NCBI GenBank assembly: GCA_028289375.1
Contig: JANQQK010000035.1
Span: 113,497 to 177,496 of the forward strand
From: Phycisphaerae bacterium
Lineage (GTDB): Bacteria; Planctomycetota; Phycisphaerae; UBA1845
Length of the DNA: 64,000 nt
Reading direction: 5' to 3'
Position numbers and translations under genes: made by a program. Position 1 is the stretch's first letter, and each line of letters starts with the position of its first letter. Below are positions 6,787-42,250 of this stretch, piece after piece. The notes beneath the pieces are model-generated. The model was not told where the DNA came from and made no database searches. It saw only the letters and a list, made by a program, of their open reading frames with translations.

Positions 6787-7185
6787 TCACCCGTCCCAGA
6801 TTTCGGATGTTACCAACTCGATGGAGTTGTTGGCAGGGTCGCGGAAGTAGAGCGACTGGGCGCCGTTGCCCCATGTCACTTCCTGCTCGATGGGGATGGC
6901 GTGGGCGGCGAGGCGGTCGCGCCATGGCTGGAGGTCGCCGTGGGTGATGGAGAAAGCGACGTGCCCTGGGCCAACAGCACCGTGGGACGGCACTTCGCGC
7001 GAGCCGGCCGACTCATCCGGATCGAAAATCAGGAGGACACTATCATCACTCACACGAAAGAACACGAACACCGGCAACTGCTTTGACATCTTCTGCAAAC
7101 CGAGCACGTCGGCGTAGAAGGACTCCATGGCTGGCAGGTCTTTCGTGTAGATGCAGGTTTCCAGAACTCGTGATATGGTCGGCAT
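6787..7185 (-). CDS. VOC family protein (glyoxalase/bleomycin-resistance/dioxygenase fold)
   Basis: 132 aa with the typical VOC pattern: LETCIYTKDLPAMESFYADVLGL ... GHVAFSI ... SLYFRDPANNSIEL. Confidence 0.75.
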   Translation of the reverse strand: MPTISRVLETCIYTKDLPAMESFYADVLGLQKMSKQLPVFVFFRVSDDSVLLIFDPDESAGSREVPSHGAVGPGHVAFSITHGDLQPWRDRLAAHAIPIEQEVTWGNGAQSLYFRDPANNSIELVTSEIWDG

Positions 7186-26002: not shown

Positions 26003-28741
26003 ATGCTTGAGGGAATGGTTGGTTTGAAGATGCGCGGGCTTGGCGATCGAAGATGGCTGGTACTCGTGACGGTCGCGTGCCACTGCGGATTGGTGTTCGG
26101 CGATGAGGCTGGACGCTCGCCCGGAATCGGCGGACCTCATGCCCTCAAGCATCACAGCACCGGAGCCGATTGGATCGGACCACCGGGACCAATGTATGTG
26201 TCACCATCTGAGACGGTGCCCGATATCCACAACGCTGCCGCGGACGTGATGGCCGATGATGTTCTGCCTGAACGCGTGAGCGTGCTGGTCCAATTTCAGC
26301 CTGTTGGGGACGGCGTCACGGAGGCGATGTCACGCACGCGCCGTTCGCGCGTAGATCGCTGGGCGAAGGATGTCGGCGGCCGACAGAAGTACGTCTACAA
26401 GACCGTCTTGCCCGATACGGTCAATCTGCGCGACATTCCGACAACACAAATCCGCGAACTGGAGCGCCTTCCGGGTGTCGTGAAGGTTGAGCGGGATCAG
26501 CTGATGCATGCACACCTCACCGTGAGCACGCCGATGATTCGGGCGCTTCAAAGTCAGATCAGCGCCGCGGGGCTGTCGGCAGATGGCAGCGGCGTGCGTG
26601 TTTGCGTGATCGACACGGGCATCGATTCGGACCACGTGATGTACGGCGATCGTGTCGACACGGCGGCGGGTCGAGACTTTGCCAACGATGACAACGATCC
26701 CGAAGACGACAACGGACATGGGACGAACGTGGCTGGCATCGCGGTTGGCGGTGTTGGTATTTCCGACGAACGCTGTGGCGTGCCGACGACACTCCAGGGG
26801 GTTGCGCCAGCGGCGACGCTGGTCGGCATCAAAGTGCTCGGCGCGTCGGGAAGTGGATTCACGTCGGACGTCATCGCGGGAATCGACTACGCAGCCGATC
26901 AGTCTGCTTCCGGCGGTCGCTGCGATGTGATCAACCTCAGCCTCGGGGGTGGCGTGTTTGGTGGGGCGTGCAATGGCGAAAGCTCGGCCATCGCCGCCAA
27001 CAACGCGGTGGCCAACGGCGTCGTGGTCGTGGCATCTGCCGGAAACGAAGCGAATGCAAACGCGCTCGGGTCGCCCGCGTGCGCATCGGATGCGATTGCG
27101 GTGGGAGCCGTGTTCGACGATGACTTTCCGAACTGCGAGCACGATGATTCGAGTTTCTCATGGTGTGCCAATGCTCAGTGCACCGAGATCCTGTGCACCG
27201 ATACGAACATCACCGCTGACGCGCTGATCTGCTTCAGCAATCGCACCGATCAGCTCGATGTCACGGCGCCGGGTTGCGTCTCGACATCTGCCGGCGTCGG
27301 TTCGGGGGGAACCGGACTGGTCGGTCAGTGCGGGACGAGTCAGGCTGCACCGCATGTGGCTGGCTTGGCGGCTTTGCTGCTGAGCGTGGATCCGACACTG
27401 ACGCCCGCGGAGGTCCGTCAGATCATCCGCGACGGAGCCATTGATCTGGGGCCGCCTGGCTTCGACATCGGTTATGGATACGGACGAATCGACGCGATCG
27501 ACGCACTCTCGCTGCTGGCACCTTGCGTTGGCGATGGGGATTGCGACGACGGCGATGCCTGCACGACCGATACGTGCGTGGCTGGCAGCTGCACCAATGT
27601 TGCGATCGCATGCGGAGCAGATGATACATGCGTGAACGGCGTATGCGAAGCGCTCGGCGCCTGCTGCCAGGGATCGTTGTGTGATGTTCGGGCGACGTCT
27701 GAATGCGCGTCACTGTCGGGCGTTTTCCTCGGGGGTGGATCTGTTTGTGGAAGCGGTGCAGCCAACAACCCGACAACGTACACAGCGACACCCGATGTCG
27801 CGATCCCTGATGGGGGTGGCATTGGCAATCCGGTGAGCGACACGATTGTCGTGCCCGACTCCTTTCCGATCGGCGACATCGATGTCAGCATCACGATCAC
27901 GCACACGTGGGTCGGCGACGTCACGGTCTCGCTCGAGCATGACGGAACGAGTGTCACCTTGATCGATCGGCCGGGCGTACCGGATTCCACATTCGGCTGC
28001 GATTCCAGCAACTTCGACGGCATGGTGCTCGATGACGACGGGACAGGTGGCGCGATCGAGTCGCAATGCCAGACGAACCTCACATCGCCACCAAACTACA
28101 CACCGAACAACGCGCTGGCCGCCTTCAACGGGATGGACGCCGCGGGCGCATGGACGATCACAGTCTTTGACAGCGCAACGCCCGATCCGGGAACGCTGAA
28201 TGCGTGGTCGCTCGCAATCGACGGCCTTGGGTTCAATCCCTGCACATCCCTTTGTGCGGATGCATCGGCGTGTGATGATGGACTTTTCTGCAACGGTATG
28301 GAGACGTGCGATCCAGCCAACCCTTCGGCTGATGCGTTTGGCTGTGTAGCGGGTGTCGCACCGGTTGTGGATGACGGCGTCGCGTGCACGATCGACTCGT
28401 GCGATGAGGACACGGACACGGTGTTGAACGTCGCCGACGACGCACAGTGTCCCGGTGCGTGCGATCGTTGCGATCCGATCAGCGGTTGTTGGCATTGCCC
28501 GTTCGATCTCGATGGAGATGCAGACGGGGCGATCGGCACCGGCGACTTCGGACTGTTCACCGGGTGCTTTGGCCAGGTCTATCTCCCCGGTGATGCTAAT
28601 TATGATACCTGTCTGTTGTCGAACTTTGACGGCGAGGTCGACAGCGAGACGGGCGCGTACAACGTCGGCACTGGTGATTTCGGCTTGTTCAGCAGTTGCT
28701 TCGGGCTGACTTGCGAAACGTGCGTTCTCTGTACACCGTGA
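26003..28741 (+). CDS. Secreted S8 subtilisin-family serine protease with an I9-like propeptide, a proprotein-convertase P-domain and a dockerin-like C-terminus
   Basis: The catalytic residues lie in D (VCVIDTGIDSDH), H (DDNGHGTNVAGIA) and S (GTSQAAPHVAGLAALLL). The P-domain-like block is PIGDIDVSITITHTWVGDVTVSLEHDGTSVTLIDRPG...GAWTITVFDSATPDPGTLNAWSL. A Cys-rich C-terminal double loop follows. The start could also be ATG 26030. Confidence 0.85.
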   Translation: MLEGMVGLKMRGLGDRRWLVLVTVACHCGLVFGDEAGRSPGIGGPHALKHHSTGADWIGPPGPMYVSPSETVPDIHNAAADVMADDVLPERVSVLVQFQPVGDGVTEAMSRTRRSRVDRWAKDVGGRQKYVYKTVLPDTVNLRDIPTTQIRELERLPGVVKVERDQLMHAHLTVSTPMIRALQSQISAAGLSADGSGVRVCVIDTGIDSDHVMYGDRVDTAAGRDFANDDNDPEDDNGHGTNVAGIAVGGVGISDERCGVPTTLQGVAPAATLVGIKVLGASGSGFTSDVIAGIDYAADQSASGGRCDVINLSLGGGVFGGACNGESSAIAANNAVANGVVVVASAGNEANANALGSPACASDAIAVGAVFDDDFPNCEHDDSSFSWCANAQCTEILCTDTNITADALICFSNRTDQLDVTAPGCVSTSAGVGSGGTGLVGQCGTSQAAPHVAGLAALLLSVDPTLTPAEVRQIIRDGAIDLGPPGFDIGYGYGRIDAIDALSLLAPCVGDGDCDDGDACTTDTCVAGSCTNVAIACGADDTCVNGVCEALGACCQGSLCDVRATSECASLSGVFLGGGSVCGSGAANNPTTYTATPDVAIPDGGGIGNPVSDTIVVPDSFPIGDIDVSITITHTWVGDVTVSLEHDGTSVTLIDRPGVPDSTFGCDSSNFDGMVLDDDGTGGAIESQCQTNLTSPPNYTPNNALAAFNGMDAAGAWTITVFDSATPDPGTLNAWSLAIDGLGFNPCTSLCADASACDDGLFCNGMETCDPANPSADAFGCVAGVAPVVDDGVACTIDSCDEDTDTVLNVADDAQCPGACDRCDPISGCWHCPFDLDGDADGAIGTGDFGLFTGCFGQVYLPGDANYDTCLLSNFDGEVDSETGAYNVGTGDFGLFSSCFGLTCETCVLCTP

Positions 28742-28743
28742 TG

Positions 28744-31092
28744 TCAGCCACTGTCGGACGCCGTGATGGCGCGGGCTTTGTCGAGAATTGTGTTCAACTT
28801 CTCGGTGGCCTCGAACCAGAGCAAACCGGCGTGTGATGTCACGGTGAATGGCTGGGATGCCAAGTTGCCGTCGGCCACGAGTTGCTCGGCCTTTTTGAGT
28901 TGGTGTCGGGCAGCTTCGTCTTGCCCGAGTTGAGCGTGGGCGGCAGCACGGATGGCGTGGCACAGAGCGGGGGATTCACCGGCCTTCAGCGCGGCGTCGG
29001 CATGCTTGATGGCGGGTTCGTGATCGCCGCCAAACAGATAGGCTTCTGCCAGGATGCGGTCGGCCCGTGGTTGAGCGGTTTCCGACACGAGTTTGGCGGA
29101 CCTGGCCCAGTCGATGGCTTGGTCGACCTTGCGATCGGCCAAATTGACTTTGGCGGTCAGAAGAAACGTTCCCAGATCATTTGAATTGAATGACTTGGCA
29201 AGGGTGAGCGCGTTACCCGCGTCGACGAGTTCGCCGCGTGCGATTTGCACCGACGCCAATGTTCGCCATGCGAAGTTTCTGACATAGTCGCTTTGCGCGA
29301 GTTTCGTCGCGCGGGTCAGATGCTGGAGTGCCGCGTCCAGATCAAGTTGATGGGCGTCGGCGATGCCGAGATTGATCCAGGAGGCTGCGTTGGCTTCATC
29401 GAGACCTGTGGCCTTTTCAAAGGCGGACCGCGCCGATGCCATGTCGCCGGAGATCTTGAGGATCACGCCCTTGTCGCTCCACAGCTTCGCGTCGTTCGGA
29501 CGATCGGCCAATGCGCGGTCGAGCAAGTCGTTCGCGCGCGCCAGCCATTCCGCGTCGGGATCTTCTGCGGCGTTGTAGCGTTCCTTGAACATGATGGCAT
29601 AGTTGTTGAGGGCATCAATGCTGCCTGGATTCCAGCTGAGCGCCCGTTGGTAGCGTGACTCCGCCTGCTCCCAGTTGCGCTCGTCCACGAAACGCAGTGC
29701 TTCGTTGACCAGGTTTTCGACCTGTTTGCCCCGGTACGCACCCCACAGCATCACGATCAGGCCAATCGACGCCATCAGCAATGCCGTGGCTGCAATGGCA
29801 GTGACAAGGGCGCGGCGACGCTTGACGAACTTCATGGTCCGCGCGATCGGACCGGGTTGCTTGGCGACGACGGGCAGATCGTTGATGTACCGCCGAAGGT
29901 CTTCGGAGAACGCACGGGCTGTGTCGTAGCGCGCCTCGGGCGACTTCTCCATCGCCTTCATGCAGATCGTTTCCAGATCACGCGGGACGCCCGGCGCGAT
30001 TCTGCGCGGCGAAATCGGATCCTTTGTGACGATGTGCCCGAGAATCTCCTTGTCGTCGGCACCGGGGATGGCTGGCTTCATCGTGAGCAGCTCGTACATC
30101 GTCGCGCCAAGCGAGTAGATGTCCGTCCGATGATCAATCCGCATGCGTCTGGCCATCGCCTGTTCCGGGCTCATGTAACGCAGCGTGCCGAGCAGGGAAC
30201 CGGTGAGCGTCACCGAGTCTTCGTTGACGTCCTTGGCCAATCCGAAATCGGCGATCATCAAACGCCCGTCGATCGACAGGATCAGATTGCTCGGTTTGAT
30301 ATCGCGGTGAATGATCCCCTCGCCGTGGGCGTAATGGAGGGCATCGGCTGCGTCGGCCATCCATCGGGCAACCTGCCGAAAGTACACGCGACCCCGCCCC
30401 ATCGACGACGCTCCCGAAACCGATTCGGAATCGTGATGCACGGTCTCGGCGTCCGTCGGATCGATCGCCGACACTTGAGACACCGGCACGATGTTCTGCA
30501 GCATCTCCGCCAATCTGGCGGGCGACGCGGTCGACGCGCTTGTTTCCGAGAACCGTTTGATCACGAGATTGAGCGGCTGGCCTGAGACGAGTTCCATGGC
30601 GCAAAAGTGCGCGTCGGCCGACTCACCAAAGTCGTAGATTGGGATGATGTTCGTATGGTGCAGGCGGGCGGCGGCGGTGGCTTCGCGGCGGAAACGGGCG
30701 ACGGCGCTGGGGCTTGCACTGCCGACCATGGCGGGCAGAACCTTGAGTGCGACCGCGCGATTCAAGCGTGTCTGAACAGCCCGGTAGACGATGCCCATTC
30801 CGCCCTGACCCAAAACGCCCGTGATGCGGTATCCGTCAACATTCGGATAGTTCTTGGGCCTCTCCGTGGACTGGTCGAACGCGACGGTCTCGTCGTCACC
30901 GGCGGCGGAGGGCTCTTTGGCGAACATCTTTCGGACATCGTGCGCCAGGGTTTCGTCGCTCTTGTGCTGCTCAAACCGCTCACGACATCGCGCGCATCGG
31001 TCAAGATGCTCGTGGAGCCGCGTATCCACGGTCTCGTCCGGTCCCGCGGACAGGATCGACTCGAAATCGGCAAGGGTGAGACACGCATCCAT
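28744..31092 (-). CDS. Transmembrane Ser/Thr protein kinase with an N-terminal ZAS-like (H-x3-C-x2-C) segment and an extracytoplasmic TPR domain
   Basis: The N-terminus is MDAC...HEHLDRCARCRERF. The Hanks kinase motifs are GQGGMGIVYRA, VALKVL, HRDIKPSN, DFGLAK and SPE. One TM helix is followed by multiple TPR-like repeats to the C-terminus. Confidence 0.85.
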   Translation of the reverse strand: MDACLTLADFESILSAGPDETVDTRLHEHLDRCARCRERFEQHKSDETLAHDVRKMFAKEPSAAGDDETVAFDQSTERPKNYPNVDGYRITGVLGQGGMGIVYRAVQTRLNRAVALKVLPAMVGSASPSAVARFRREATAAARLHHTNIIPIYDFGESADAHFCAMELVSGQPLNLVIKRFSETSASTASPARLAEMLQNIVPVSQVSAIDPTDAETVHHDSESVSGASSMGRGRVYFRQVARWMADAADALHYAHGEGIIHRDIKPSNLILSIDGRLMIADFGLAKDVNEDSVTLTGSLLGTLRYMSPEQAMARRMRIDHRTDIYSLGATMYELLTMKPAIPGADDKEILGHIVTKDPISPRRIAPGVPRDLETICMKAMEKSPEARYDTARAFSEDLRRYINDLPVVAKQPGPIARTMKFVKRRRALVTAIAATALLMASIGLIVMLWGAYRGKQVENLVNEALRFVDERNWEQAESRYQRALSWNPGSIDALNNYAIMFKERYNAAEDPDAEWLARANDLLDRALADRPNDAKLWSDKGVILKISGDMASARSAFEKATGLDEANAASWINLGIADAHQLDLDAALQHLTRATKLAQSDYVRNFAWRTLASVQIARGELVDAGNALTLAKSFNSNDLGTFLLTAKVNLADRKVDQAIDWARSAKLVSETAQPRADRILAEAYLFGGDHEPAIKHADAALKAGESPALCHAIRAAAHAQLGQDEAARHQLKKAEQLVADGNLASQPFTVTSHAGLLWFEATEKLNTILDKARAITASDSG

Positions 31093-31166
31093 GGACGATC
31101 GTCCGAAAGGGCGAAGGAAATGTGGGCATCCAGCAGGATCAGCCGCACGACATCACGCGGTTGGCC

Positions 31167-31174
31167 ATTATACT
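31167..31174. promoter_or_regulatory. Back-to-back -10-like boxes in the kinase/sigma divergent intergenic region
   Basis: The octamer ATTATACT reads TATACT on + (31169-31174, toward the sigma gene) and TATAAT on - (31172-31167, toward the kinase gene). It is the only A/T-rich stretch in the 142-bp spacer. Confidence 0.3.
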
Positions 31175-31234
31175 GGTCGTCGGATCGCGTGGTACTGATT
31201 GGAAAAACCACGGACTCAGGGCCGATACCCGAAG

Positions 31235-31813
31235 ATGGACTCAACGCATCAAAGTCTGCTGATTCGCATTCGCGACCGGGAAAACGAGGACGCGTGGCGA
31301 ACCTTCCACACGATCTACTCACCCTTTCTCTATCAGTACGTCCGTCGCCGAGGCCTCCAGCATTCGGACGCCGAGGACATCTGCAGCCACTGCATGTCCG
31401 CCGTTGCAAAGAACATTGAACGGTTCAATTACGATCGGCAGCGTGGGGGGTTTCGGAATTGGCTTCGCAGGACAGCCATCAACCGCATCATCGACGTTCA
31501 GCGGAAAAAGAAGGTGGCGCTGGCGGACGTTCAGCAGTTCGAGCAATCGCTGACCGAGGACTTGGATCTCGATCGGATCTGGCAGGAGGAGTGGGCGGAT
31601 CGCCGACTCAAGCTCTGCGTCGACCGGGTGCGTGAGCGGGTGGCGGAAATGACGTTTCAGGCGTTCTATCTGCTGGTCGTGCAGGACAAGTCGGTCGAGG
31701 ATGTCTGCGGCATGCTCAGCCTGAACGCCAACCAGGTCTACAAAGCCAAGTCGACGGTCTTGCGGCATCTGCGCGAAGAAATGGCGGCTTTTGACACCGA
31801 AACGGCCGGCTGA
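31235..31813 (+). CDS. ECF-type RNA polymerase sigma-70 family factor
   Basis: The sigma2 region is AWRTFHTIYSPFLYQYVRRRG...FRNWLRRTAINRIIDVQRK. The sigma4 HTH is SVEDVCGMLSLNANQVYKAKSTVLRHLRE. The ATG at 31235 is preferred over TTG 31199. Confidence 0.85.
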   Translation: MDSTHQSLLIRIRDRENEDAWRTFHTIYSPFLYQYVRRRGLQHSDAEDICSHCMSAVAKNIERFNYDRQRGGFRNWLRRTAINRIIDVQRKKKVALADVQQFEQSLTEDLDLDRIWQEEWADRRLKLCVDRVRERVAEMTFQAFYLLVVQDKSVEDVCGMLSLNANQVYKAKSTVLRHLREEMAAFDTETAG

Positions 31814-32017
31814 GCGGTTTTCCCGCCTGATTTGGCAGATTATTGGACCGATGCCGACCGGCTGATTCCCATCGCCCGACAGAATTCCCTACAATGGCGG
31901 TCAGAATCCGGAGGGGCTTTCCGTATCGGTAGCTGGACGGATGGGGACACACAAACGTCGCGTGGTGGCCGCTGCGCATGGTCCAACGTGACTTGGTTTG
32001 ATGGGAGATGCTGCGCC

Positions 32018-35000
32018 ATGAGTCGCATGCGGGTGATGAGGCTGCCGTTTTTTCTGTGGGCCGGGGTCTTTTGTGTTGGGATGTCTCGACCGGTGTTGGC
32101 GGTCGATCGCATCTGGGATCAGCCAACGTTCGGAATCTTCGAGTTCGGCAGCAGTTGGCAAGGCGGGGTCGTGCCAGGGCCGAACGACACTGCCGTCTTT
32201 GGTGCCACACCGACCGTTTCGTTTGCCCCGGTGACCGTGCAATTTGAATTCGGCGCCAACGTCGGCGGGATGACCGTCGAGTCGGGCGACTACACGTTGA
32301 TCGCGGTGACGAACAACCTGTCGTTCAACGTCAGCGGAGCAGTCGATGTCGGCACACGTCGATCGGCCCAAGGCCCTGATCTTAGCTCAACAGCTGACCT
32401 GACGTTCGATTTCTCGGGTGGGCTGACGATGGGATCGGTCACGATTGGTATCGATCGTGGGTTTGGACCACGTGATGGCAACGTCAGCGTGACAAGGTTC
32501 ACACAGCTATTCAGTAGCGACCTGTTCATCGGACGTTCCGCTGACGCGACCGGAGAGGCAACGGTCCGGAATTCGAACGCGAGCTGGAACGTGACGAACG
32601 GTGCTTTCGTCGGGCAGGCGGGGACAGGCTTCCTCGACGTCGTGCAGAGCGGTCGCCTGTTGGCTGACAGCATGGAAGTCGCCACCGAATTGACTGGCAG
32701 TGGAACGGTCAACGTCAACGGTCAGGGTTCGCGGATCGAGACAGAAAAGAGCGTCGAGGTCGGCGTCCGCAGCGAGGGCAACATGTTCGTGACACGTGGC
32801 GGCATGGTGACGACGAACACCTTTGCTCGACTGGGCACCACAGCGCCGGCCATTGGAAACGTCGTCGTCAACGGGTCGGGAACCTCCTGGACTGTTCAGA
32901 ATTCCATGGAGGTTGGCGCTTCGGGCACGGGGACACTCACCGTCGCCGGCGGCGGTGTGGTGGCCGCGGAAACAGCGAACACCGGAACATCGCCCGGAGG
33001 CGAGGGTACGATCATCGTCACGGGCCCCGGTTCGACATTCGTGACAGAACTCCAATTGTGGACCGGGCTGGGCGGAGATGGCGAGCTTCGCGTCGAGGAC
33101 GAAGGCACCGTCAACACCAACACGTGGGCGAGACTCGCGGAATTGGGCGCAGCCACCGGATTGGCGTTTGTGGATGGCGCGGGCAGCGACTGGAACATCA
33201 ATCAGACCCTTGACGTGGGCTATCGTGGTCACGGAGAACTCAGCATCACGAACGGCGGTCGCGTCTTTGCCAACAGTGCCGACACCGGAACACAAATCGG
33301 ATCGAACGGGTTGATCGCCGTGATCGGCGACGATTCATCATTTGAAACGGAAACGGAACTTCGTATCGGCAATCGTGGCGTCGGGGACCTGCAGATCGCG
33401 GACGGCGGCTTGGTCGAGACCAATGCGTTTGCACGCATCGGCGAGGCGACTACGTCGTTCGGGACCGCAGATGTCACCGGAACTGGAAGCCGCTGGAACA
33501 TCTCCGATTCGTGGGCCGTCGGCTGGCAAGGCCCCGCAATTGCGACCTTTAACGATGGCGGTTTCGTATCAGCCAATGACCTGACGATCGCACGATTCGA
33601 CGACAGCTTCGGCAGCCTTGAATTCAACAGCGCATCCGCGTCCATCAGCACGTTCATCAACGTTGGCGCGAACTCGGCCGGGGAGATGAATCTCTACGAC
33701 GGCAGCAGCGTCAACAACGACGGATTCAGTCGCATCGGCGGAAGTCAGCAGGCGGACGGGAGTGTCATCGTCTCGAACTCGACGTGGGACATGGCTGGCT
33801 TCTTCCAAATCGGTTGGCAGGGCGCCGGCGCGCTCGACATCAATCAAGGTGGACATGTCTCGTGCGATTGGGTTCGTGTGGCGGAATTCGAAGGATCGAA
33901 TGGGTTCGTATCGGTTGATGGAACTGGCTCATCGCTGCAGGCGGCTGGGTTCCTGAACGTCGGCAACAAGGACATCGGCTCGATGTTCATTACCGATGGC
34001 GGCAATGTGACCGCCAACAACAGTGTCATCGGCAACGACCAGACGGGCATCGGCGAGATCTACGTCAGTGGAAAGGGAGCCAAGCTGTCGCTCACGAATC
34101 AGCTTCGTGTCGGTGGTCGCGGCGACGGGCTGCTGGATATTCGCAACGGGGGACAGGTGAGCAATACCTGGTGTCGCGTCGGCGAATCGGCTGGCGGCCT
34201 TGGGGATGTGACCGTCAGCGGCCCATCGTCATCCTGGATCAATACCGATTTCGTCGACGTTGGCCCCAACGGTGTCGGCAAGGTGCATCTTGAGAATGGC
34301 GGTCGCATTTCGTCGCCCAACTTCCGCATCAACAAGTTCGGGCTTGTCGACGGCGACGGGAAAATCGAGGCACCGGTAATCAACCTCGGCCTGTTTGCCG
34401 CGGGCACGCAGGGCGGTGTCGAAATCACTGGTGACTACACCCAGGCAGCGGACGGCTCCATGTTGATCACGATCGATGATTCGTCGTCGCTTGCTGCCAG
34501 CAGTCTGCTGCGGGTCGAGGGAACAGCTTTTCTTGGCGGCACGCTGGAGATTGACTTCGAGGAAGGGTTCACACCATCGCCGGGCACGACCTACACGGTC
34601 ATGACATTCGCATCGCGCGTCGGCAAATTCGCGGCGTTCGACTGCGTGGGCTTTGAGAACGATGATGTTCTCTCCATCAAGTACACAAAGACGAGCGTCG
34701 AATTGGTGGTGGTCGAGCCCTGCGGGCCAACATGCTACGACTTGTCGGCGGATTGCGACGGCGACGGCATCGTGGACGCCTGCCAGATATCCGACTGCCC
34801 AGGTGAAGACCCGAGCTGCCAGGATTGCAACAACAACCTCATCCCGGACAGTTGCGACCTCGAAGCCGGCACAAGTTCAGATACCGACAGCAACGGGGTT
34901 CCAGACGAATGCGTCGGCTGGGACGGCGGTGGAAAAACCAACCGTTGGAGCGATGCAGCAAACTGGGACGACGATACGGTCCCCAACAACACCGTTGAAC

Positions 35001-36715
35001 AGACGTTCGCCGCAGACGTTTCGGGTATCGAGACGTCCATCATTCTCGACATCGAAGCGGGTGTCGACGCCGTGCGACTGCTCAGCGGCGCGAGGCTCAG
35101 TGTGTCGGCGGGGAGCTTGAGACTCGACGAGGCCGCCGGCATCCGCAATGACGGTTCGCTCGCGATCCGGTCGGGGCGATCCATCGTGGCGGCTGCGCCG
35201 TCGCCAGTACGTTTGCTCGGCACGTCACCGTTTCGACTTGATGGCGCCACGGCTCGGTTGACGGGCATCGAATCCGACAATGCGTTCTTGAATCTTGGTC
35301 GCGTCGAGGGTAAGGGCATCATCGATTCGGCGTTCCTGAACGCATCAACCGCGACCGTGGAAGCCAATTCGCCAGGCTCAACGTTGCTCATCACAGGCCC
35401 CGGACGCAAGGTGAACAATGGCTTCTTCCGTGCGGTGGACGGTGCGACGTTGCACATTGGCAACACGAGCGTCAGCGGTTCCGGCAGGTTGCAGGCCTCG
35501 CGCGGCACGATTCTCATCGGACCGCTGGAAGGCCCGACGACCGCCGGCGGGTCCGATGGCTCGACGGTCACGGTGTCAGCCAATTCCGCCCAAGCCAGCA
35601 ATGGCGGCAATCTCTACGCCGACGGTGACGCTGAGACATTCCTCAGTGGTACGCTGACTATCGACAACTGCGGCACCTACCAGGCCGCGCCACTCTCCGA
35701 CGGCGTCTCAGCGTCGCTGTCCGTCAACGCGGTGGTCGTCGCCGAATCGATACCCGGCAGCGGCGGGAGCGTGTTGCTGACGCAATCGATGGATCTGTCG
35801 GTCACGAACGCTGTCGAACTGCAAGGGGGCGGGCTGCTGCAGTTGCTGGGTGGCTGCACGCCGCCGCGGCTGGAGATGTCGCAGAATTCGTCGATGTCCG
35901 CAGGGTCATTGAACATTGCCGGCAATGCGTATGTTGAAGTCGTCGACAATGCCGACGCAAACATCGGTGGTGACGTTGCGATGTTGGAGGCTGTGGGCTG
36001 CGATGGGACCAATCTGGGCGGTTGCACGCCGCCAAGGCTGACCGTGGTCGCACAAGCATCGATGACCGTCGGTGGCGATCTCACACTGCCGAACAGCGCG
36101 AACGTGACCGTCGGCAACAACCCCGACGAAGGCACCACGATGTCACTGGCTGGTGATTTCGTTAACGAGAGCACAACGCCGGAGACATTCCAGTGGCTCA
36201 ACGGAACACTGATACTCGACGGTGAGGATCAGCGATTCGAAACGGCAGGCAGGGATGTGGGAGCCGTGCCCGACGGATTGATCAACAACTTCGCCATCGG
36301 CCGGCTGGAAGTTGCATCGAACACGACCGTCACCTTCTCGGACATGTTCGACAATGATCGACTCGGACAGTCGCCCTGCACGGAAGCACTCTACGTCAAC
36401 GAGTTGGTGCTCGCACCGAACGCGATGATCATCCTGAATGAAACGACGATCTACGCGGGGACCGTGATCAACAACGGCGGCACGCTGCAAACCGACGGTG
36501 CGTGTGGTCGGTTGGCCCGCATCTGTGAGGGAGACTTCGACGGCGACTGCACGGTCACGCTGTCCGACTTCGACGACTTCCAAAACTGCGTCTCGGGACC
36601 GGGCAACGTCGCATTGTCCGAAGGATGTGCGGTTGCTGACTTTGATCTGGACGGCGACGTGGACTTCGTCGACTTCGGACGCTATCAGTCCTCTTCACGC
36701 ATGCCGGAGAATTGA
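32018..36715 (+). CDS. Giant (1,565-aa) secreted beta-helix/repeat protein with a dockerin-like C-terminus
   Basis: Signal peptide MSRMRVMRLPFFLWAGVFCVGMSRPVLA. About 12 degenerate repeats resemble the T5SS/PEP-CTERM-associated repeat. A Cys-rich CxDCNNNLIPDSCDLEAGTSSDTDSNGVPDEC module follows, then a second repeat region. The C-terminus is CEGDFDGDCTVTLSDFDDFQNCVSGP...GCAVADFDLDGDVDFVDF. Confidence 0.8.
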   Translation: MSRMRVMRLPFFLWAGVFCVGMSRPVLAVDRIWDQPTFGIFEFGSSWQGGVVPGPNDTAVFGATPTVSFAPVTVQFEFGANVGGMTVESGDYTLIAVTNNLSFNVSGAVDVGTRRSAQGPDLSSTADLTFDFSGGLTMGSVTIGIDRGFGPRDGNVSVTRFTQLFSSDLFIGRSADATGEATVRNSNASWNVTNGAFVGQAGTGFLDVVQSGRLLADSMEVATELTGSGTVNVNGQGSRIETEKSVEVGVRSEGNMFVTRGGMVTTNTFARLGTTAPAIGNVVVNGSGTSWTVQNSMEVGASGTGTLTVAGGGVVAAETANTGTSPGGEGTIIVTGPGSTFVTELQLWTGLGGDGELRVEDEGTVNTNTWARLAELGAATGLAFVDGAGSDWNINQTLDVGYRGHGELSITNGGRVFANSADTGTQIGSNGLIAVIGDDSSFETETELRIGNRGVGDLQIADGGLVETNAFARIGEATTSFGTADVTGTGSRWNISDSWAVGWQGPAIATFNDGGFVSANDLTIARFDDSFGSLEFNSASASISTFINVGANSAGEMNLYDGSSVNNDGFSRIGGSQQADGSVIVSNSTWDMAGFFQIGWQGAGALDINQGGHVSCDWVRVAEFEGSNGFVSVDGTGSSLQAAGFLNVGNKDIGSMFITDGGNVTANNSVIGNDQTGIGEIYVSGKGAKLSLTNQLRVGGRGDGLLDIRNGGQVSNTWCRVGESAGGLGDVTVSGPSSSWINTDFVDVGPNGVGKVHLENGGRISSPNFRINKFGLVDGDGKIEAPVINLGLFAAGTQGGVEITGDYTQAADGSMLITIDDSSSLAASSLLRVEGTAFLGGTLEIDFEEGFTPSPGTTYTVMTFASRVGKFAAFDCVGFENDDVLSIKYTKTSVELVVVEPCGPTCYDLSADCDGDGIVDACQISDCPGEDPSCQDCNNNLIPDSCDLEAGTSSDTDSNGVPDECVGWDGGGKTNRWSDAANWDDDTVPNNTVEQTFAADVSGIETSIILDIEAGVDAVRLLSGARLSVSAGSLRLDEAAGIRNDGSLAIRSGRSIVAAAPSPVRLLGTSPFRLDGATARLTGIESDNAFLNLGRVEGKGIIDSAFLNASTATVEANSPGSTLLITGPGRKVNNGFFRAVDGATLHIGNTSVSGSGRLQASRGTILIGPLEGPTTAGGSDGSTVTVSANSAQASNGGNLYADGDAETFLSGTLTIDNCGTYQAAPLSDGVSASLSVNAVVVAESIPGSGGSVLLTQSMDLSVTNAVELQGGGLLQLLGGCTPPRLEMSQNSSMSAGSLNIAGNAYVEVVDNADANIGGDVAMLEAVGCDGTNLGGCTPPRLTVVAQASMTVGGDLTLPNSANVTVGNNPDEGTTMSLAGDFVNESTTPETFQWLNGTLILDGEDQRFETAGRDVGAVPDGLINNFAIGRLEVASNTTVTFSDMFDNDRLGQSPCTEALYVNELVLAPNAMIILNETTIYAGTVINNGGTLQTDGACGRLARICEGDFDGDCTVTLSDFDDFQNCVSGPGNVALSEGCAVADFDLDGDVDFVDFGRYQSSSRMPEN
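32480..34340 (+). repeat. In-frame coding tandem repeats (~12 units of ~50-60 aa) inside the giant protein
   Basis: The pattern G-x-G-x-L-x-[VI]-x-x-GG-x-V ... G-x-[VI]-x-V-x-G-x-GS-x-[WF] recurs. Examples are GTGTLTVAGGGVV...VVNGSGTSWTV, GHGELSITNGGRV...FVDGAGSDWNI and GVGDLQIADGGLV...DVTGTGSRWNI. Confidence 0.75.
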
Positions 36716-36742: not shown

Positions 36743-38068
36743 TCAACCGAGAAGCTGCCGTACTTCATGCTCCAGCGCGGCGATCGCATCGTCGGCCAAT
36801 TCGTAACGCACGCGCATGCTTGGCTTGTTCAACGTCAACAGCGACGCCAGATCAATCGGCGTGCCGATCAACACGAGATCGCAATCGGCTGCGTTGATCG
36901 TCTCCTCAAGCTCGGACATCTGACGCTCGCCGTAACCCATCGCCGGGAGGATATCCGTCAAGTGCGTGAACTTCGCGAACGTGTCACGAATCGAACCGAC
37001 GGCGTACGGTCTGGGGTCGACAATCTCCGCCGCTCCATTTGACGTCGCCGCCACGTGACCGGCGCCATACTTCATCTCGCCGTGCGTCAATGTCGGACCA
37101 TCCTCAACCACCAGCACGCGACGGCCCTTGATCGCGGCGGGATCGTCGACTGTGATGGGTGACTCGGCGCGAATGATGCGGGCTGTCGGGTTGATCGTGT
37201 GGATGTTCCGCTCCACCTGGTCGACATCTTCGGGACGGGCACTGCCCACCTTGTTGATGATGACGACGTCGGCCATCCGCACGTTCGTTTCGCCCGGATG
37301 GTACTGCAGCTCATGGCCGGCTCGGTGCGGGTCGGCCAACACGATGTACAGATCGGGTTTGTAGAACGACATGTCGTTGTTGCCACCGTCCCACAACACG
37401 ACATCGCATTCCTTCTCGGCCTCCCGCAGGATACGCTCATAGTCAATCCCGGCGTAGACGACGAAACCTGCCTGAATATGCGGGAAATACTCCTCGCGCT
37501 CTTCGATCGTGCAGCGATGCCGATCGAGGTCTTCCACTGTTTCAAACCGCTGACAGATCTGCTCGACCAGGTTGCCGTACGGCATCGGGTGACGGACCGC
37601 GACCGAGCGCTTGCCGAGTCTCTTCAATATCCCGAGGACGGCCCGCGTTGTCTGACTCTTGCCGCATCCCGTCCGCACCGCGCATACGGCGATGACCGGC
37701 TTGGTCGATCGGAGCATGGTGTGGCGATGGCCATTGATGCGGAAGTCCGCACCCGCCGCCGTCACGATCGAGGCTTTGTGCATCACTTCTTCGTACGGGA
37801 GATCCGAGTAGGACATCGACACCTGATCGACCTTGTGCTCGCGGATCAGATCAGCCAGGTCCGCCTCCGGTCGAATCGGAATGCCCTCCGGATAGCGCTC
37901 TCCGCACAACTCCGCCGGGTAGATACGACCGTCGATGTCGGGAATCTGTGCGGCTGTAAACGCGACGACCTTGAACCTCGGATCGTTCCGCCAATAGGTA
38001 TTGAAATCATGAAAATCGCGTCCCGCTGCCCCAAGGATAATCACCCGTTCCGTCTTTGCGTCAATCAT
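36743..38068 (-). CDS. COG2403-type P-loop protein (cyclic 2,3-diphosphoglycerate synthetase-like / predicted GTPase)
   Basis: The N-terminal segment VIILGAAGRDFHDFN and the P-loop AVCAVRTGCGKSQTT match the overall layout of the cDPGS-like family. The assignment is by recollection of that family, not by a search. The start ATG 38068 has a GAGGGG ribosome-binding site. Confidence 0.55.
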   Translation of the reverse strand: MIDAKTERVIILGAAGRDFHDFNTYWRNDPRFKVVAFTAAQIPDIDGRIYPAELCGERYPEGIPIRPEADLADLIREHKVDQVSMSYSDLPYEEVMHKASIVTAAGADFRINGHRHTMLRSTKPVIAVCAVRTGCGKSQTTRAVLGILKRLGKRSVAVRHPMPYGNLVEQICQRFETVEDLDRHRCTIEEREEYFPHIQAGFVVYAGIDYERILREAEKECDVVLWDGGNNDMSFYKPDLYIVLADPHRAGHELQYHPGETNVRMADVVIINKVGSARPEDVDQVERNIHTINPTARIIRAESPITVDDPAAIKGRRVLVVEDGPTLTHGEMKYGAGHVAATSNGAAEIVDPRPYAVGSIRDTFAKFTHLTDILPAMGYGERQMSELEETINAADCDLVLIGTPIDLASLLTLNKPSMRVRYELADDAIAALEHEVRQLLG

Positions 38069-38247
38069 CGCGCTTCGCCCCTCGTTGTGGTTCACTGCAT
38101 GGACTACCGCCACGTCCCATCCCACAAACCCTGTCATCGCCCCGACCAAGACATTTTAACGCAATCACTGCATCGAGGAAGTGTGCTGCTGTCCCGTCAG
38201 CATCGACCGATGTATGCTGCTTTTCGCTCATGTGCAGGAGAGGCGAA

Positions 38248-38754: not shown

Positions 38755-39107
38755 CTCCAATCCTCGACCCACTCAACTAACGCGATGTCATTGTCACCAC
38801 TCGTCCCATGCTCGCAATACCATAGCTGTGGACTCTCATAGTCCCCTCGATCACTGTCGTGCACATGGCCACAATACGGACACGTCCAACAGATGTGGCA
38901 ACCATCGTCCGGTGATTCGCCACGAACCACAGGAAACGCCTCCTCGCTCGAAACGACCACCCACTGGTCATGCTCGTGAGGTTCATAGCTTGCGTTGTTG
39001 AATCTAAGTTCGTGCCACACGCCGGCTTCTGACATGCCGATCTGCCAACACTTGTCGCGCAGGAACGCCCGCCAAATCGTGACCGTTCGTCGCTCCAATT
39101 CGCTCAT
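38751..39107 (-). CDS. Hypothetical Cys/His-rich small protein (118 aa), translationally coupled to tkt-tal
   Basis: Its ATG overlaps the TGA of the upstream Tkt-Tal ORF (ATGA at 39104-39107). The cluster CHICWTCPYCGHVH...CEH suggests metal binding. Confidence 0.5.
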   Translation of the reverse strand: MSELERRTVTIWRAFLRDKCWQIGMSEAGVWHELRFNNASYEPHEHDQWVVVSSEEAFPVVRGESPDDGCHICWTCPYCGHVHDSDRGDYESPQLWYCEHGTSGDNDIALVEWVEDWS

Positions 39108-42100
39108 GCCGTCTGCAATTGCGTAACCTTCGTCTTCAGGTCGGCCATCAGGGCATCGAAGGAATTGGCAAAGGCTTTCACGCCGGCGGTGAGCAATTCG
39201 TCGGTCACGTCCGACATGTTGATGCCCTCGGCTTCGATGGCATCCATGGCCGCACGGTAACTGGCGACGTCCTGCTCGATGGCACTCGCGACAGCCCCAT
39301 GGTCCAGCACGGCATCGATCGTGTGCAGCGGCAGCGTGTTGACCGTCTCCGGACCAATCAGCGGATCAACATAGCACGTATCACCGTAGGCCGGATCCTT
39401 CGCACTCGTGCTGGCCCACAGCGGTCGCTGCACGCGCGAACCCATCTTGCGAAGCTTCTCGAATCGCGACCCGTGGAAGACGGCTTTGTAGTCGGCGTAT
39501 GCGAGCTTGGCGTTACCGACCGCAGCCATGCCGAGTCGCGTGCTGAGGTTCTTATGGCCTGCGTCGATCTTCTCGCGGATGCGCTTGTCGACGAGCGTGT
39601 CGACGCGGCTGACGAAGAAAGACGCGACACACGACACGCCGGTGACGTCCTGCCCCGCGTCGGCCCGTTTTTCCAAACCGCGGATGTAGGCTTCCATCAC
39701 CTTGGCGTACATCGCCCGCGAGAAGATCAGCGTGACGTTGACGTGAATGCCCTCGGCAATCAGCGTCTCGATCGCAGGGATGCCCTCCTCTGTCGCCGGA
39801 ACCTTGATGAACACGTTGGGGCGATTCAGCTTGCCGAACAACCGCCGCGCCTCCTCGACCGTGCCCTTGGTGTCGTGGGCCAAGTGTGGATTGACTTCGA
39901 GGCTGACGAATCCGTCGAGACCATTGGTCCGCTCGTAGACCGGTTTGAACAGGTCTGCTGCGTCGCCCACATCGCCGACAGTGAGCGCTTCATACACGTC
40001 ATCGGTAGACGCCCCATTGGCCACCAAATTCTCGATCGCGGCGTCGTAGTCGTCGCTGCCGGCGATGGCTTTGTGGAAGATGGTCGGGTTGCTCGTCACG
40101 CCGACGACGCCCTGATCGATCAACCGCTGGAGGTCGCCGCCTTCGATCATCGATCGGCTGATCGAGTCGCACCAGATGGACTGCCCCACCGCGTTGATCT
40201 GTTCGATCCGAGTTCCCATTGCGTCGCCACCCTCCTTCGCTCCGCCTGCCAATACCTGCCTGGCCACTTTGACCACATTCTCCGCCGTGAATCCGAATTC
40301 GCGCATCACCTCGCCCGCGGGCGCCGACTCGCCGAAACGATCCAATCCGATAATCGCGCCTTCGCTGCCGACGTACCGTTCCCAACCATGCGTCGCACCC
40401 GCCTCGATGGCCACCCGCTTCGTCACCGATGGCGGCAAAACATCGTTTCGATAGCTGATCGGCTGACGTTCGAACTGCTCCCAGCATGGCAGGCTGACGA
40501 CGCGAACCTTCACGCCCTCGCTCGTCAGTGATTCATACGCCGCCACACAATGCTGCAATTCCGAACCAGTCCCAATCAGGATCACGTCGGGCGAGCCGTC
40601 GCAGTCCGCCAACACATAACCACCCTTCGCCAACCCGCTCGCCGATGCATACGTCGACCGATCGAGCGTCGGCACACCCTGACGCGTCAACGCCAGCAGT
40701 ATGGGACGATCCGTCACCGACATGATGTAGCGCCACGCTTCGACCGTTTCGTTCGCGTCCGCTGGTCGAACAACATCAAGTCCCGGCATCGCACGCAAAG
40801 ACGCAACGTGTTCGACGGCCTGATGGGTCGGACCATCCTCGCCGAGTCCGATGCTGTCGTGCGTGAAAACGTAGATGACCGGCTGATGCATCATGGCCGA
40901 AAGGCGAATCGACGGCCGGCAATAATCTGTAAACGTCAAGAAGCTCGACACGAAGGGCCGCATACCGCTGAGCGACATCCCGTTCGCCGCCGCTGCCATC
41001 GCGTGCTCGCGAATGCCGAACGCGATGTTGCGACCCTCGGGTTGCTCTTTGGAAAACAGCGGGCTGTCCGGCACAATCGTTTTGGTGGAATTGACCAGGT
41101 CAGCCGAACCACCCATCAGCGCCGTCACTCTCGGCGCGATCGCCGCCAATGCCTTGCCACCGGCAGCGCGCGTGGCCATCCCCTTTGCATCAGCCTCGAA
41201 CACCGGCAGATGCGCATCCCAACCATCGGGACACTCCCGACTGCTCATCGCTTTCCACTCGGCCGCCAGCTTCGGATGATCAGCTTCGTACTGCTCGAAC
41301 ATCGCCCGCCACTGCTGCGAATACTCAATCCCGCGCGTTGCAGCCGCACCCGCCATGTGCGTTCGCACTTCTTCGGGAACGTGGAATGTCGCCTCCGGAT
41401 CCCAGCCATACGCCTGCTTGGTCAGCTTGATCTCATCCGCGCCGAGCGGTTCGCCGTGCGCCTTCGATGTGTTTTCGCGGTTCGGGCTGCCGAATCCGAT
41501 CTTGCTCTTGCACACGATCAGCGACGGGCGATTCGGCTCGGCGATCGCGGCTTCGAGCGCCACATGCACCTCATCAAGGTTGTTCGCGTCAGCCACGTGT
41601 GTCACGAACCAGCCGTAAGACTGAAACCGCGCAGCCACGTTCTCGGAAAACGCGATGTTCGTCCGGCCATCGATCGTGATCTCGTTGTCATCGTAGATCC
41701 AGACGAGGTTCGACAGGCCGAGATGCCCCGCCATGGAAGCCGCTTCCGCACCGACACCCTCCATCAGGTCACCATCGCTGCAGAGCGCAAACACGCGATG
41801 TTTGAACAACTCACAGCCCTGCGCGTTAAAATGGGCGTTTTGCCACGCTTGGGCGATGGCCATTCCGACCGAATTACCTACGCCCTGCCCAAGTGGCCCT
41901 GTCGTCGTTTCCACACCGGGACAAATGCCGTATTCCGGATGACCGGCACACTTTCCGCCCAGCTGACGAAAACTGCGCAGATCCTCCAGAGTGACATCAT
42001 ACCCATACAAATGGAGCAAACTGTAGATCAGCATCGACGCATGCCCCATCGACAGCACGAATCGGTCGCGGTCGGGCCAATCGGGGTTGGCGGGGTCAAA

Positions 42101-42250
42101 ACGCAGGAATCGGTCCCAAAGGACATAGGCCACCGGGGCCATGCCCATCGGCGCGCCGGGGTGGCCGCTGTTGGCCTGCTGAACGGCGTCGATGGAGAGG
42201 GTGCGAATGGTGTCGATGCACAACTGGTCGATCGAGCGTTCGGTGGTCAT
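39104..42250 (-). CDS. tkt/tal: Bifunctional transketolase (N-terminal ~670 aa) / transaldolase (C-terminal ~370 aa) fusion
   Basis: The N-terminus LSIDAVQQANSGHPGAPMGMAPVAYVLW...GHASMLIYSLLHLYGY is the transketolase ThDP motif region. The C-terminus QSIWCDSISRSMIEGGDLQRLIDQGVVGVTSNPTIFHKAI...FIKVPAT is a transaldolase with the active-site Lys context. One uninterrupted 1048-codon frame. Confidence 0.85.
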   Translation of the reverse strand: MTTERSIDQLCIDTIRTLSIDAVQQANSGHPGAPMGMAPVAYVLWDRFLRFDPANPDWPDRDRFVLSMGHASMLIYSLLHLYGYDVTLEDLRSFRQLGGKCAGHPEYGICPGVETTTGPLGQGVGNSVGMAIAQAWQNAHFNAQGCELFKHRVFALCSDGDLMEGVGAEAASMAGHLGLSNLVWIYDDNEITIDGRTNIAFSENVAARFQSYGWFVTHVADANNLDEVHVALEAAIAEPNRPSLIVCKSKIGFGSPNRENTSKAHGEPLGADEIKLTKQAYGWDPEATFHVPEEVRTHMAGAAATRGIEYSQQWRAMFEQYEADHPKLAAEWKAMSSRECPDGWDAHLPVFEADAKGMATRAAGGKALAAIAPRVTALMGGSADLVNSTKTIVPDSPLFSKEQPEGRNIAFGIREHAMAAAANGMSLSGMRPFVSSFLTFTDYCRPSIRLSAMMHQPVIYVFTHDSIGLGEDGPTHQAVEHVASLRAMPGLDVVRPADANETVEAWRYIMSVTDRPILLALTRQGVPTLDRSTYASASGLAKGGYVLADCDGSPDVILIGTGSELQHCVAAYESLTSEGVKVRVVSLPCWEQFERQPISYRNDVLPPSVTKRVAIEAGATHGWERYVGSEGAIIGLDRFGESAPAGEVMREFGFTAENVVKVARQVLAGGAKEGGDAMGTRIEQINAVGQSIWCDSISRSMIEGGDLQRLIDQGVVGVTSNPTIFHKAIAGSDDYDAAIENLVANGASTDDVYEALTVGDVGDAADLFKPVYERTNGLDGFVSLEVNPHLAHDTKGTVEEARRLFGKLNRPNVFIKVPATEEGIPAIETLIAEGIHVNVTLIFSRAMYAKVMEAYIRGLEKRADAGQDVTGVSCVASFFVSRVDTLVDKRIREKIDAGHKNLSTRLGMAAVGNAKLAYADYKAVFHGSRFEKLRKMGSRVQRPLWASTSAKDPAYGDTCYVDPLIGPETVNTLPLHTIDAVLDHGAVASAIEQDVASYRAAMDAIEAEGINMSDVTDELLTAGVKAFANSFDALMADLKTKVTQLQTA

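Follow-up and report, generated by a model that had tools for sequence, protein, structure and literature searches.

A 64,000-nucleotide stretch of contig JANQQK010000035.1 (assembly GCA_028289375.1, positions 113,497 to 177,496 of the forward strand), a metagenome-assembled contig of a Phycisphaerae bacterium that we refer to as the window, encodes a 782-amino-acid (aa) protein that joins an N-terminal domain related to the zinc-type anti-sigma (ZAS) domains to a complete Hanks-type Ser/Thr kinase, one transmembrane helix and a TPR domain. Its gene is divergent from that of a sigma factor of the extracytoplasmic function (ECF) type. We propose that this protein is a single-pass transmembrane class-I zinc anti-sigma factor with an inserted Hanks kinase, and that phosphorylation controls the release of the sigma factor, a proposal to which we give roughly even credence.

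The N-terminus of the kinase, MDACLTLADFESIL...HEHLDRCARCRERFEQ in the translated open reading frame (ORF), contains C4 (codon 31081-31083) followed by H29-x3-C33-x2-C36 (nt 30985-31008), both on the minus strand, a spacing that a preliminary description made from the letters of the window had taken for an anti-sigma motif. Of the 120 homologues among the matches listed, 98 carry HxxxCxxC near residue 29. When the N-termini of 52 homologues, in whose selection C4 played no part, were aligned and turned into a profile, C4, H29, C33 and C36 emerged as the sole invariant columns (52/52). The H and C residues are thus conserved in the orthologues, and a chance occurrence of HxxxCxxC was rejected on account of the invariance of all four ligands. 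The zf-HC2 model PF13490 is matched by 50 of the 52 N-termini at E<=0.1 and by 14 at E<=1e-5; at the latter threshold it is the only family that they still match. Compared with domains of solved structure, the 52-sequence profile recovers RslA (3hug_B, 3.4e-6), DdvA (8rlz_A, 1.9e-5), RsiW (5wuq_C, 2.3e-4) and ChrR (2q1z_B, 1.1e-3), and all its solved-structure matches are anti-sigma factors. The register relative to ChrR is +2: C4, H29, C33 and C36 fall on ChrR positions 6, 31, 35 and 38, and the C-x24-H spacing of the kinase N-terminus matches that between positions 6 and 31. The resulting CHCC ligand type is that of RsiW and DdvA (PMC11506125). An AlphaFold2 model of the N-terminus calculated from the family alignment consists of helices 7-15, 24-32 and 34-58 (predicted local distance difference test score, pLDDT, 80.8), with H29 at the end of the second helix and C36 within the third, and such a three-helix form would be a competent anti-sigma domain. 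From homology and ligand conservation we judge the kinase N-terminus, at the family level, to be a divergent representative of the CHCC zinc anti-sigma domains, in which the four conserved residues would bind zinc. An hhalign comparison with an approximate RsrA sequence gave the expected register as well (E=0.0022); it is not used as support.

Standard annotation largely overlooks this kinase-borne domain: about 10 of the 120 homologues among the matches listed carry a precomputed PF13490 match. The 62-residue ZAS profile, when run against a set of 5.8 billion proteins, had no match at E<=1e-3, a consequence of the shortness of the domain relative to a database of that size.

The remainder of the protein bears out what the preliminary description had said of it, namely a Hanks core, one transmembrane helix and a long TPR ectodomain. 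The catalytic core is complete (GQGGMG at residue 95, VALK at 114, HRDIKPSN at 262, DFG at 282 and SPE at 308); Pfam Pkinase is matched in two stretches with 140.3 bits (cut-off 31.7), and the best solved relatives of the domain are PknB (2e-49) and PknA. A HATPase of the GHKL fold, as found in RsbW and SpoIIAB, has no match in the protein in either Pfam or NCBIfam; its kinase domain is of the Hanks type. Residues 428-450 form the only segment that exceeds 1.6 on the Kyte-Doolittle scale, and from this single transmembrane helix we infer that the TPR domain lies outside the cytoplasm. The linker that separates the ZAS segment from the kinase differs in length and sequence between homologues; in a longer AlphaFold2 model that reaches into the kinase N-lobe, pLDDT is below 50 across its residues 59-79. 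The lead-in to the kinase, P-x-[IV]-[DE]-G-Y, is conserved, with P83 and Y88 invariant in the alignment of homologues. Within the kinase domain, about 70 residues (175-245; 30358-30570, minus strand) form a Ser-rich insert that divides the Pkinase match; it is partly kept in the family (SS.GRGR.YYRQ) and could contain sites of autophosphorylation. The closest named homologues of the kinase come from Phycisphaerae and Planctomycetota metagenome-assembled genomes (MAGs), in which thousands of homologues of about 790 aa with the same architecture make up a very large family.

The divergently encoded sigma factor matches TIGR02937 (sigma70-ECF) with 65.1 bits (cut-off 42.9) over model positions 1-165 of 165, which bears out the ECF (group 4) identity given to it beforehand, with a sigma-2 and a sigma-4 region and no others; with TIGR02989, the Rhodopirellula/Verrucomicrobium family, it scores 28 bits (cut-off 124.55). 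Its ATG start codon at 31235, located 142 bp from the kinase start on the opposite strand as previously described, is backed by orthologues that begin with MD[ST]T[HR].SLL. An exhaustive HMMER search with the sigma factor yielded 4072 representatives at E<1e-10; a word-indexed search returned only the protein itself and one orthologue. The acidic positions of region 2.2 are D or E in 138 and 151, respectively, of 152 relatives, and the DAED motif of the window sigma factor is intact. Directly after DAED, residues 50-53 read C-S-H-C (31382-31393, plus strand), the first Cys being absent from the orthologue in locus L086. In the phospho-activated ECF43 sigma factors, and in the proposed ECF59/60 cases, DAED is replaced by uncharged residues that include the phospho-acceptor Thr/Ser (PMC8999054, PMC8103513, PMC13147305). 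A phospho-switch of the ECF43 kind was consequently considered for the window sigma factor and rejected, since it retains DAED. With this motif intact it falls outside the ECF43 phospho-activation model and is expected to bind core RNA polymerase unless held back; by this reasoning from its sequence, it should require an inhibitor. Neither in the window nor on the source contig do the gene calls show a separate anti-sigma gene next to it.

Orthologous pairs of sigma factor and kinase are kept in three further loci although gene orders differ. The closest orthologue, in L086, is divergent as in the window (sigma 58%, kinase 61% identity), and so is the pair in L006 (44% for both proteins); the pair in L002 (sigma 39%, kinase 46%) is co-directional and lies beside a transketolase-transaldolase fusion, as in the window. 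Across these pairs the ZAS segment shows 33-40% identity, the sigma factor 39-58% and the kinase domain 63-82%; the faster divergence of the ZAS segment and the sigma factor is as expected for a specificity-determining pair. The linkage extends beyond this family. In a generic sample of loci, fetched with a kinase (HRD) pattern that was not directed to the TPR-kinase family and containing one true member of it, an ECF sigma gene adjoins 5/5 ZAS-kinases compared to 9/91 other kinases (Fisher p=3.3e-5). The five ZAS-kinases of that sample belong to other Planctomycetota lineages and have no TPR ectodomain. In L031 and L034, two of the loci surveyed, the stop codon of the sigma gene overlaps the kinase start by 4 nt. 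Overlap of stop and start codons is the classic layout of sigma/anti-sigma operons. Many sigma-linked kinases without a ZAS domain carry the N-terminal motif DPRV...YL.RYPELA, and at the third DAED position Ser/Thr occurs in 0/10 sigma factors linked to ZAS-kinases versus 9/24 linked to non-ZAS kinases (p=0.034). In the kinases of L008, L014, L130, L143, L148, L151 and L152 the ZAS domain is replaced by the non-zinc N-terminal helical motif DPRVxxLxxEYLxxLExGxxPDRxxYLxRYPELA, and the sigma factors of DPRV-type kinases often read D-x-S-D in region 2.2. Such D-x-S-D sigma factors may represent a phospho-switch class, and the comparison hints at two regulatory classes, one ZAS-linked and one DPRV-linked.

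The same linkage would fit equally well with a role of the ZAS segment as a substrate-docking module that brings the sigma factor to the kinase for an activating phosphorylation, as in EcfP/PknT and EcfK/PknS. Direct phosphorylation of a sigma factor by a co-encoded Hanks kinase has been demonstrated for ECF43 (PMC8999054, PMC13147305), and in PknS, too, the kinase domain is preceded by an N-terminal helical domain of about 81 residues, to which no role has been assigned (PMC13147305). However, the window sigma factor and its relatives keep the DAED motif, whose absence the phospho-switch model demands, the Ser/Thr count given above separates ZAS-linked from other sigma factors, and the characterised homologues of the N-terminal domain are all inhibitors. 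We therefore consider docking improbable.

A third gene belongs to this setting. Beginning with an ATG at 32018, 204 bp past the sigma stop codon, a giant ORF encodes a 1565-aa protein with a signal-peptide-like N-terminus, in agreement with the preliminary description of a large signal-peptide-bearing repeat protein. NCBIfam TIGR04393 (T5SS/PEP-CTERM-associated repeat) matches it with 326 bits (cut-off 23), and its sole Pfam match at E<=1 is a weak Dockerin_1 at the C-terminus. The autotransporter model ECSE_1600 aligns only with the repeat region (114 bits versus a cut-off of 2335), and a C-terminal beta-barrel translocator, as in classical autotransporters of type V secretion, is found in it neither by Pfam nor by NCBIfam. 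Homologues of the giant protein adjoin ZAS-kinases in L086 (E 5.5e-253), in L003 and L100, and, as two copies, in L005. Under strict flank filters, such a homologue lies beside 3/10 kinases of the family versus 0/110 other kinases (p=4e-4); the remaining large neighbours of family kinases are unrelated enzymes, amidohydrolases and PutA among them. In L086 the giant orthologue is situated directly downstream of the kinase gene and not of the sigma gene, and in L003, L005 and L100 the ZAS-kinases and giant homologues occur with no sigma gene at all. The idea that the giant gene is a fixed operon partner of the sigma gene was consequently rejected, the arrangement not being conserved in L086. Since giant homologues are found only beside family kinases, some of which have no sigma gene next to them, the giant gene is functionally tied to the kinase family. 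Its proposed place in the regulon of the sigma factor thus needs to be revised: the pathway may target it, or it may equally be what the TPR domain senses. In L005 (1242-15941) tandem ZAS-kinases are each followed by a giant homologue (1281 and 1774 aa, stop-to-stop) within an 18-kb locus that contains no sigma gene, an organization that points to a modular duplication of kinase-giant units.

[quoted passage not shown] The window's own N-terminus gives no match to zf-HC2 (PF13490) at E<=1 and reaches a sub-threshold 16.8 bits with the RsrA model (cut-off 62.5), so that the ZAS N-terminus put forward in the preliminary description holds at the level of the family but finds no match for the window's own sequence. 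A Foldseek search of the N-terminal model against the PDB returned no match. Of the 18 TPR-family members from family-directed loci with enough flank, 15 have no ECF sigma gene within 8-10 kb and all keep the zinc ligands (3/18 have an adjacent one; for the TPR family overall the figure is about 4 of 19), and the retention of the ligands without a nearby sigma gene means that the domain must often act on a sigma factor encoded elsewhere, or on something else. An action of the kinase on the sigma factor is, moreover, part of the proposal only.

These observations can be accommodated by assuming that the zinc module is unconnected with the neighbouring sigma factor and is a regulatory, redox-sensing or dimerisation element, with kinase substrates that lie elsewhere, for instance in the export or assembly of the giant protein; the sigma gene would then be a coincidental or merely transcriptionally linked neighbour. 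The weak match of the window's own N-terminus, the scarcity of adjacent sigma genes in the TPR family and the restriction of giant homologues to family kinases all speak in favor of this explanation. Against it stands the specificity of the homology, with zf-HC2 as the sole family at E<=1e-5 and anti-sigma factors as the only solved matches, together with the sigma gene that adjoins every ZAS-kinase of the generic sample and the survival of orthologous sigma-kinase pairs through rearrangements. On this balance we rate a sigma-independent zinc module as unlikely, albeit one that deserves to be taken seriously.

The findings lend themselves to the following model for the proposed anti-sigma kinase. 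At rest, the N-terminal C-H-C-C zinc domain would bind the divergently encoded ECF sigma factor and thereby keep it at the membrane; with its DAED core-binding motif, the sigma factor would be active unless sequestered. A signal would arrive at the periplasmic TPR domain, perhaps from the linked giant surface protein or from the state of that protein. Once activated, the kinase would phosphorylate its flexible linker, its anti-sigma domain or the sigma factor itself, upon which the sigma factor would become free for RNA polymerase. Phosphorylation would consequently constitute the release step, in place of the proteolytic cascade of classical membrane anti-sigma factors, and the reaction would correspond to that of Mycobacterium tuberculosis PknB with RshA/RseA, here performed in cis. 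Extended to the family as a whole, this leads us to suggest, more tentatively than for the single protein, that ZAS-kinase fusions are distinct and widespread ECF regulators of the Planctomycetota which are released by (auto)phosphorylation rather than by proteolysis. They might then explain those kinase-linked groups that keep DAED, and their sensor may read the giant protein in a manner akin to cell-surface signalling.

The promoter-like elements of the region invite yet another explanation. The sequence ATTATACT (31167-31174) in the divergent spacer reads TATACT on the plus strand and TATAAT on the minus strand, in line with the -10-like box on both strands of the preliminary description, and at the equivalent position the spacer of L086 holds the palindrome AGTATACT. 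On the plus strand the element is part of a sigma-70-like site, ACGACA-16-TATACT (31147-31174), and the region has 2 such sites versus 0.2 expected. The orthologous spacers did not align coherently in MAFFT, and upstream of the sigma gene we found no clear autoregulatory promoter of the ECF type. A further sigma-70-like site, TTCCCA-18-TACAAT (31866-31895), precedes the giant gene. Taken together, the sigma-70-like sites before the sigma and giant genes and the presence of AGTATACT in L086 suggest that promoters of the housekeeping type drive the expression of the sigma/kinase pair. One could thus envision that the sigma factor is controlled only by its own transcription from a shared housekeeping-type promoter, and that the kinase is a co-expressed neighbour with no post-translational coupling to it. 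The spacer elements conserved in L086 and the missing ECF-type promoter are in keeping with this simple explanation, which leaves two facts unaccounted for: the presence on a kinase of an anti-sigma-type domain with invariant ligands, and the translational coupling of ZAS-kinases to sigma genes in other lineages. Of all explanations considered here we regard it as the least probable.

Between the second sigma-70-like site and the giant gene lies GAATCC-N12-CGTATC (31904-31927), which is unique in the window (0 expected by chance). A GAATCC/CGTATC pair is located 75-90 nt upstream of both giant orthologues, that of the window and that of L086, where the spacer is N11. When two mismatches were allowed, 11 sites were found versus 5.9 expected, which is no enrichment. 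With two instances, no enrichment under relaxed matching and a spacer below the ECF norm, GAATCC-N11/12-CGTATC is to be viewed as a candidate element. GAATCC-N-CGTAT is also present at 6851-6876 (minus strand) of L099, where it lies between genes and upstream of a 415-aa ORF; that locus encodes a family ZAS-kinase as well.

The positions of the features are compiled in the table below; the coordinates originally assigned to the kinase, sigma and giant genes and to the motifs all proved correct when compared with the ORFs and the motif positions.

Features of the sigma/kinase region in the window (positions in nt of the 64,000-nt stretch)
Feature	Position	Strand	Characteristics
ZAS / Hanks kinase / transmembrane / TPR receptor gene	28744..31092	-	782-aa ORF; identical gene call on source contig
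TPR domain, residues ~455-782	28747..29730	-	TPR_2, TPR_8, TPR_19 and related Pfam matches, residues 470-740
Single transmembrane helix, residues 428-450	29743..29811	-	Kyte-Doolittle peak 2.39
Hanks-type Ser/Thr kinase domain, residues ~88-410	29863..30831	-	Pfam Pkinase, motifs
Variable linker, residues ~59-87	30832..30918	-	Predicted disordered; ends in P-x-[IV]-[DE]-G-Y
N-terminal zinc-type anti-sigma-like domain, residues 1-58	30919..31092	-	Ligands C4, H29, C33, C36
Divergent spacer, 142 bp	31093..31234	.	Holds ATTATACT (31167-31174), -10-like on both strands
ECF sigma factor gene, 192 aa	31235..31813	+	TIGR02937; Sigma70_r2; D45-A-E-D48 in region 2.2
Candidate promoter region of giant gene	31866..31927	+	Sigma-70-like site, then GAATCC-N12-CGTATC
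Secreted repeat protein gene, 1565 aa	32018..36715	+	TIGR04393, 11 matched stretches; dockerin-like C-terminus

On either side of these genes, the window encodes further proteins. At 26003-28741 (plus strand), convergent with the kinase gene and with the two stop codons 2 nt apart, lies the gene of a secreted S8 subtilase that has a P-domain and a Cys-rich region and ends in a dockerin-like C-terminus; this C-terminus is weakly similar to that of the giant protein (BLASTP E=0.002). The ORF directly downstream of the giant gene (468 aa; 36743-38149, minus strand; 441 aa on the source contig) has no Pfam family on record. At 39104-42250 (minus strand) a transketolase is fused to a transaldolase (TAL_FSA) domain in a protein of 1048 aa, and a 1068-aa fusion of this kind is the one that lies beside the sigma/ZAS-kinase pair of L002. 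The occurrence of the fusion at both places indicates that some synteny has been retained.

Kinase-linked ECF groups typically come without anti-sigma factors, and those that keep DAED must work differently from the phospho-activated ones (PMC8999054, PMC7826278). So far, ECF sigma factors and Hanks kinases are known to meet in one mechanism, the activating phosphorylation of DAED-less ECF43 sigma factors. Were the proposed function of the 782-aa protein true, an anti-sigma domain within the kinase would resolve both the control of the DAED-keeping groups and the question of their missing anti-sigma factor, and it would define a phosphorylation-gated release of a sigma factor. The system is testable with four parts, residues 1-90 of the kinase, the 192-aa sigma factor, the candidate target promoter and a kinase-dead control, and, if the proposal is correct, it supplies compact orthogonal sigma, anti-sigma and kinase parts for synthetic circuits.

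Our literature search retrieved no paper that combines ECF, kinase and zf-HC2, with an earlier mention in Jogler et al. (2012) or Iyer et al. (2020) being possible. Nor is an anti-sigma domain mentioned in a survey from 2024 of the kinase architectures of Planctomycetota. The preliminary description had known of no characterised protein that combines sequestration with a kinase. In this general form the statement does not stand, since RsbW and SpoIIAB, which have another fold, are already known to be anti-sigma factors and kinases at once; a class-I ZAS domain paired with a Hanks kinase is what we did not find described.

When placed among known systems, the window kinase resembles RslA/SigL, RsiW/SigW, ChrR/SigE and DdvA/DdvS in its N-terminal cytoplasmic C/H-x24-H-x3-C-x2-C domain, as seen in the profile matches, and also in its single transmembrane helix, its extracytoplasmic sensor and the putative partner ECF sigma factor encoded next door. 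The sensor of DdvA is likewise TPR-based (PMC11506125). Unlike in these systems, about 370 residues comprising the disordered linker and the full Hanks kinase intervene between the anti-sigma domain and the transmembrane helix. The known zinc class-I anti-sigma factors free their sigma factors when they undergo regulated proteolysis or when their zinc site is oxidized, and none of those checked has a kinase. RsbW and SpoIIAB are soluble proteins of the GHKL/HATPase fold that act on the group-3 sigma factors SigB and SigF and phosphorylate an anti-anti-sigma factor. They unite sigma sequestration and protein kinase activity in one protein, as we propose here, and RsbW has been described as an anti-sigma factor with kinase activity (PMC7406223); unlike the window kinase, they possess neither a class-I anti-sigma domain nor a Hanks domain.

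In M. tuberculosis, PknB phosphorylates the ZAS-type proteins RshA/RseA and thereby frees SigH/SigE, which is the proposed chemistry in trans (PMC8999054); there, kinase and anti-sigma factor are separate and encoded apart, whereas in the window they are one polypeptide. The ECF43 pairs EcfP-PknT (Vibrio parahaemolyticus) and EcfK-PknS (Xanthomonas citri) share with the window the placement of an ECF sigma gene beside that of a single-pass Hanks receptor kinase, and an N-terminal helical segment likewise precedes the kinase domain in an ECF43-pair kinase (PMC13147305). In contrast to the window sigma factor with its retained DAED, however, the ECF43 sigma factors have no DAED and are activated by threonine phosphorylation (PMC8999054), and in the literature examined neither PknS nor PknT is reported to have a zinc anti-sigma motif. 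The kinase-linked ECF groups of the Planctomycetota (the original ECF59-62, as well as ECF217, ECF267 and ECF283) come from the same phylum and display the same gene pairing; what sets the window apart from them is that the anti-sigma domain resides inside the kinase itself.

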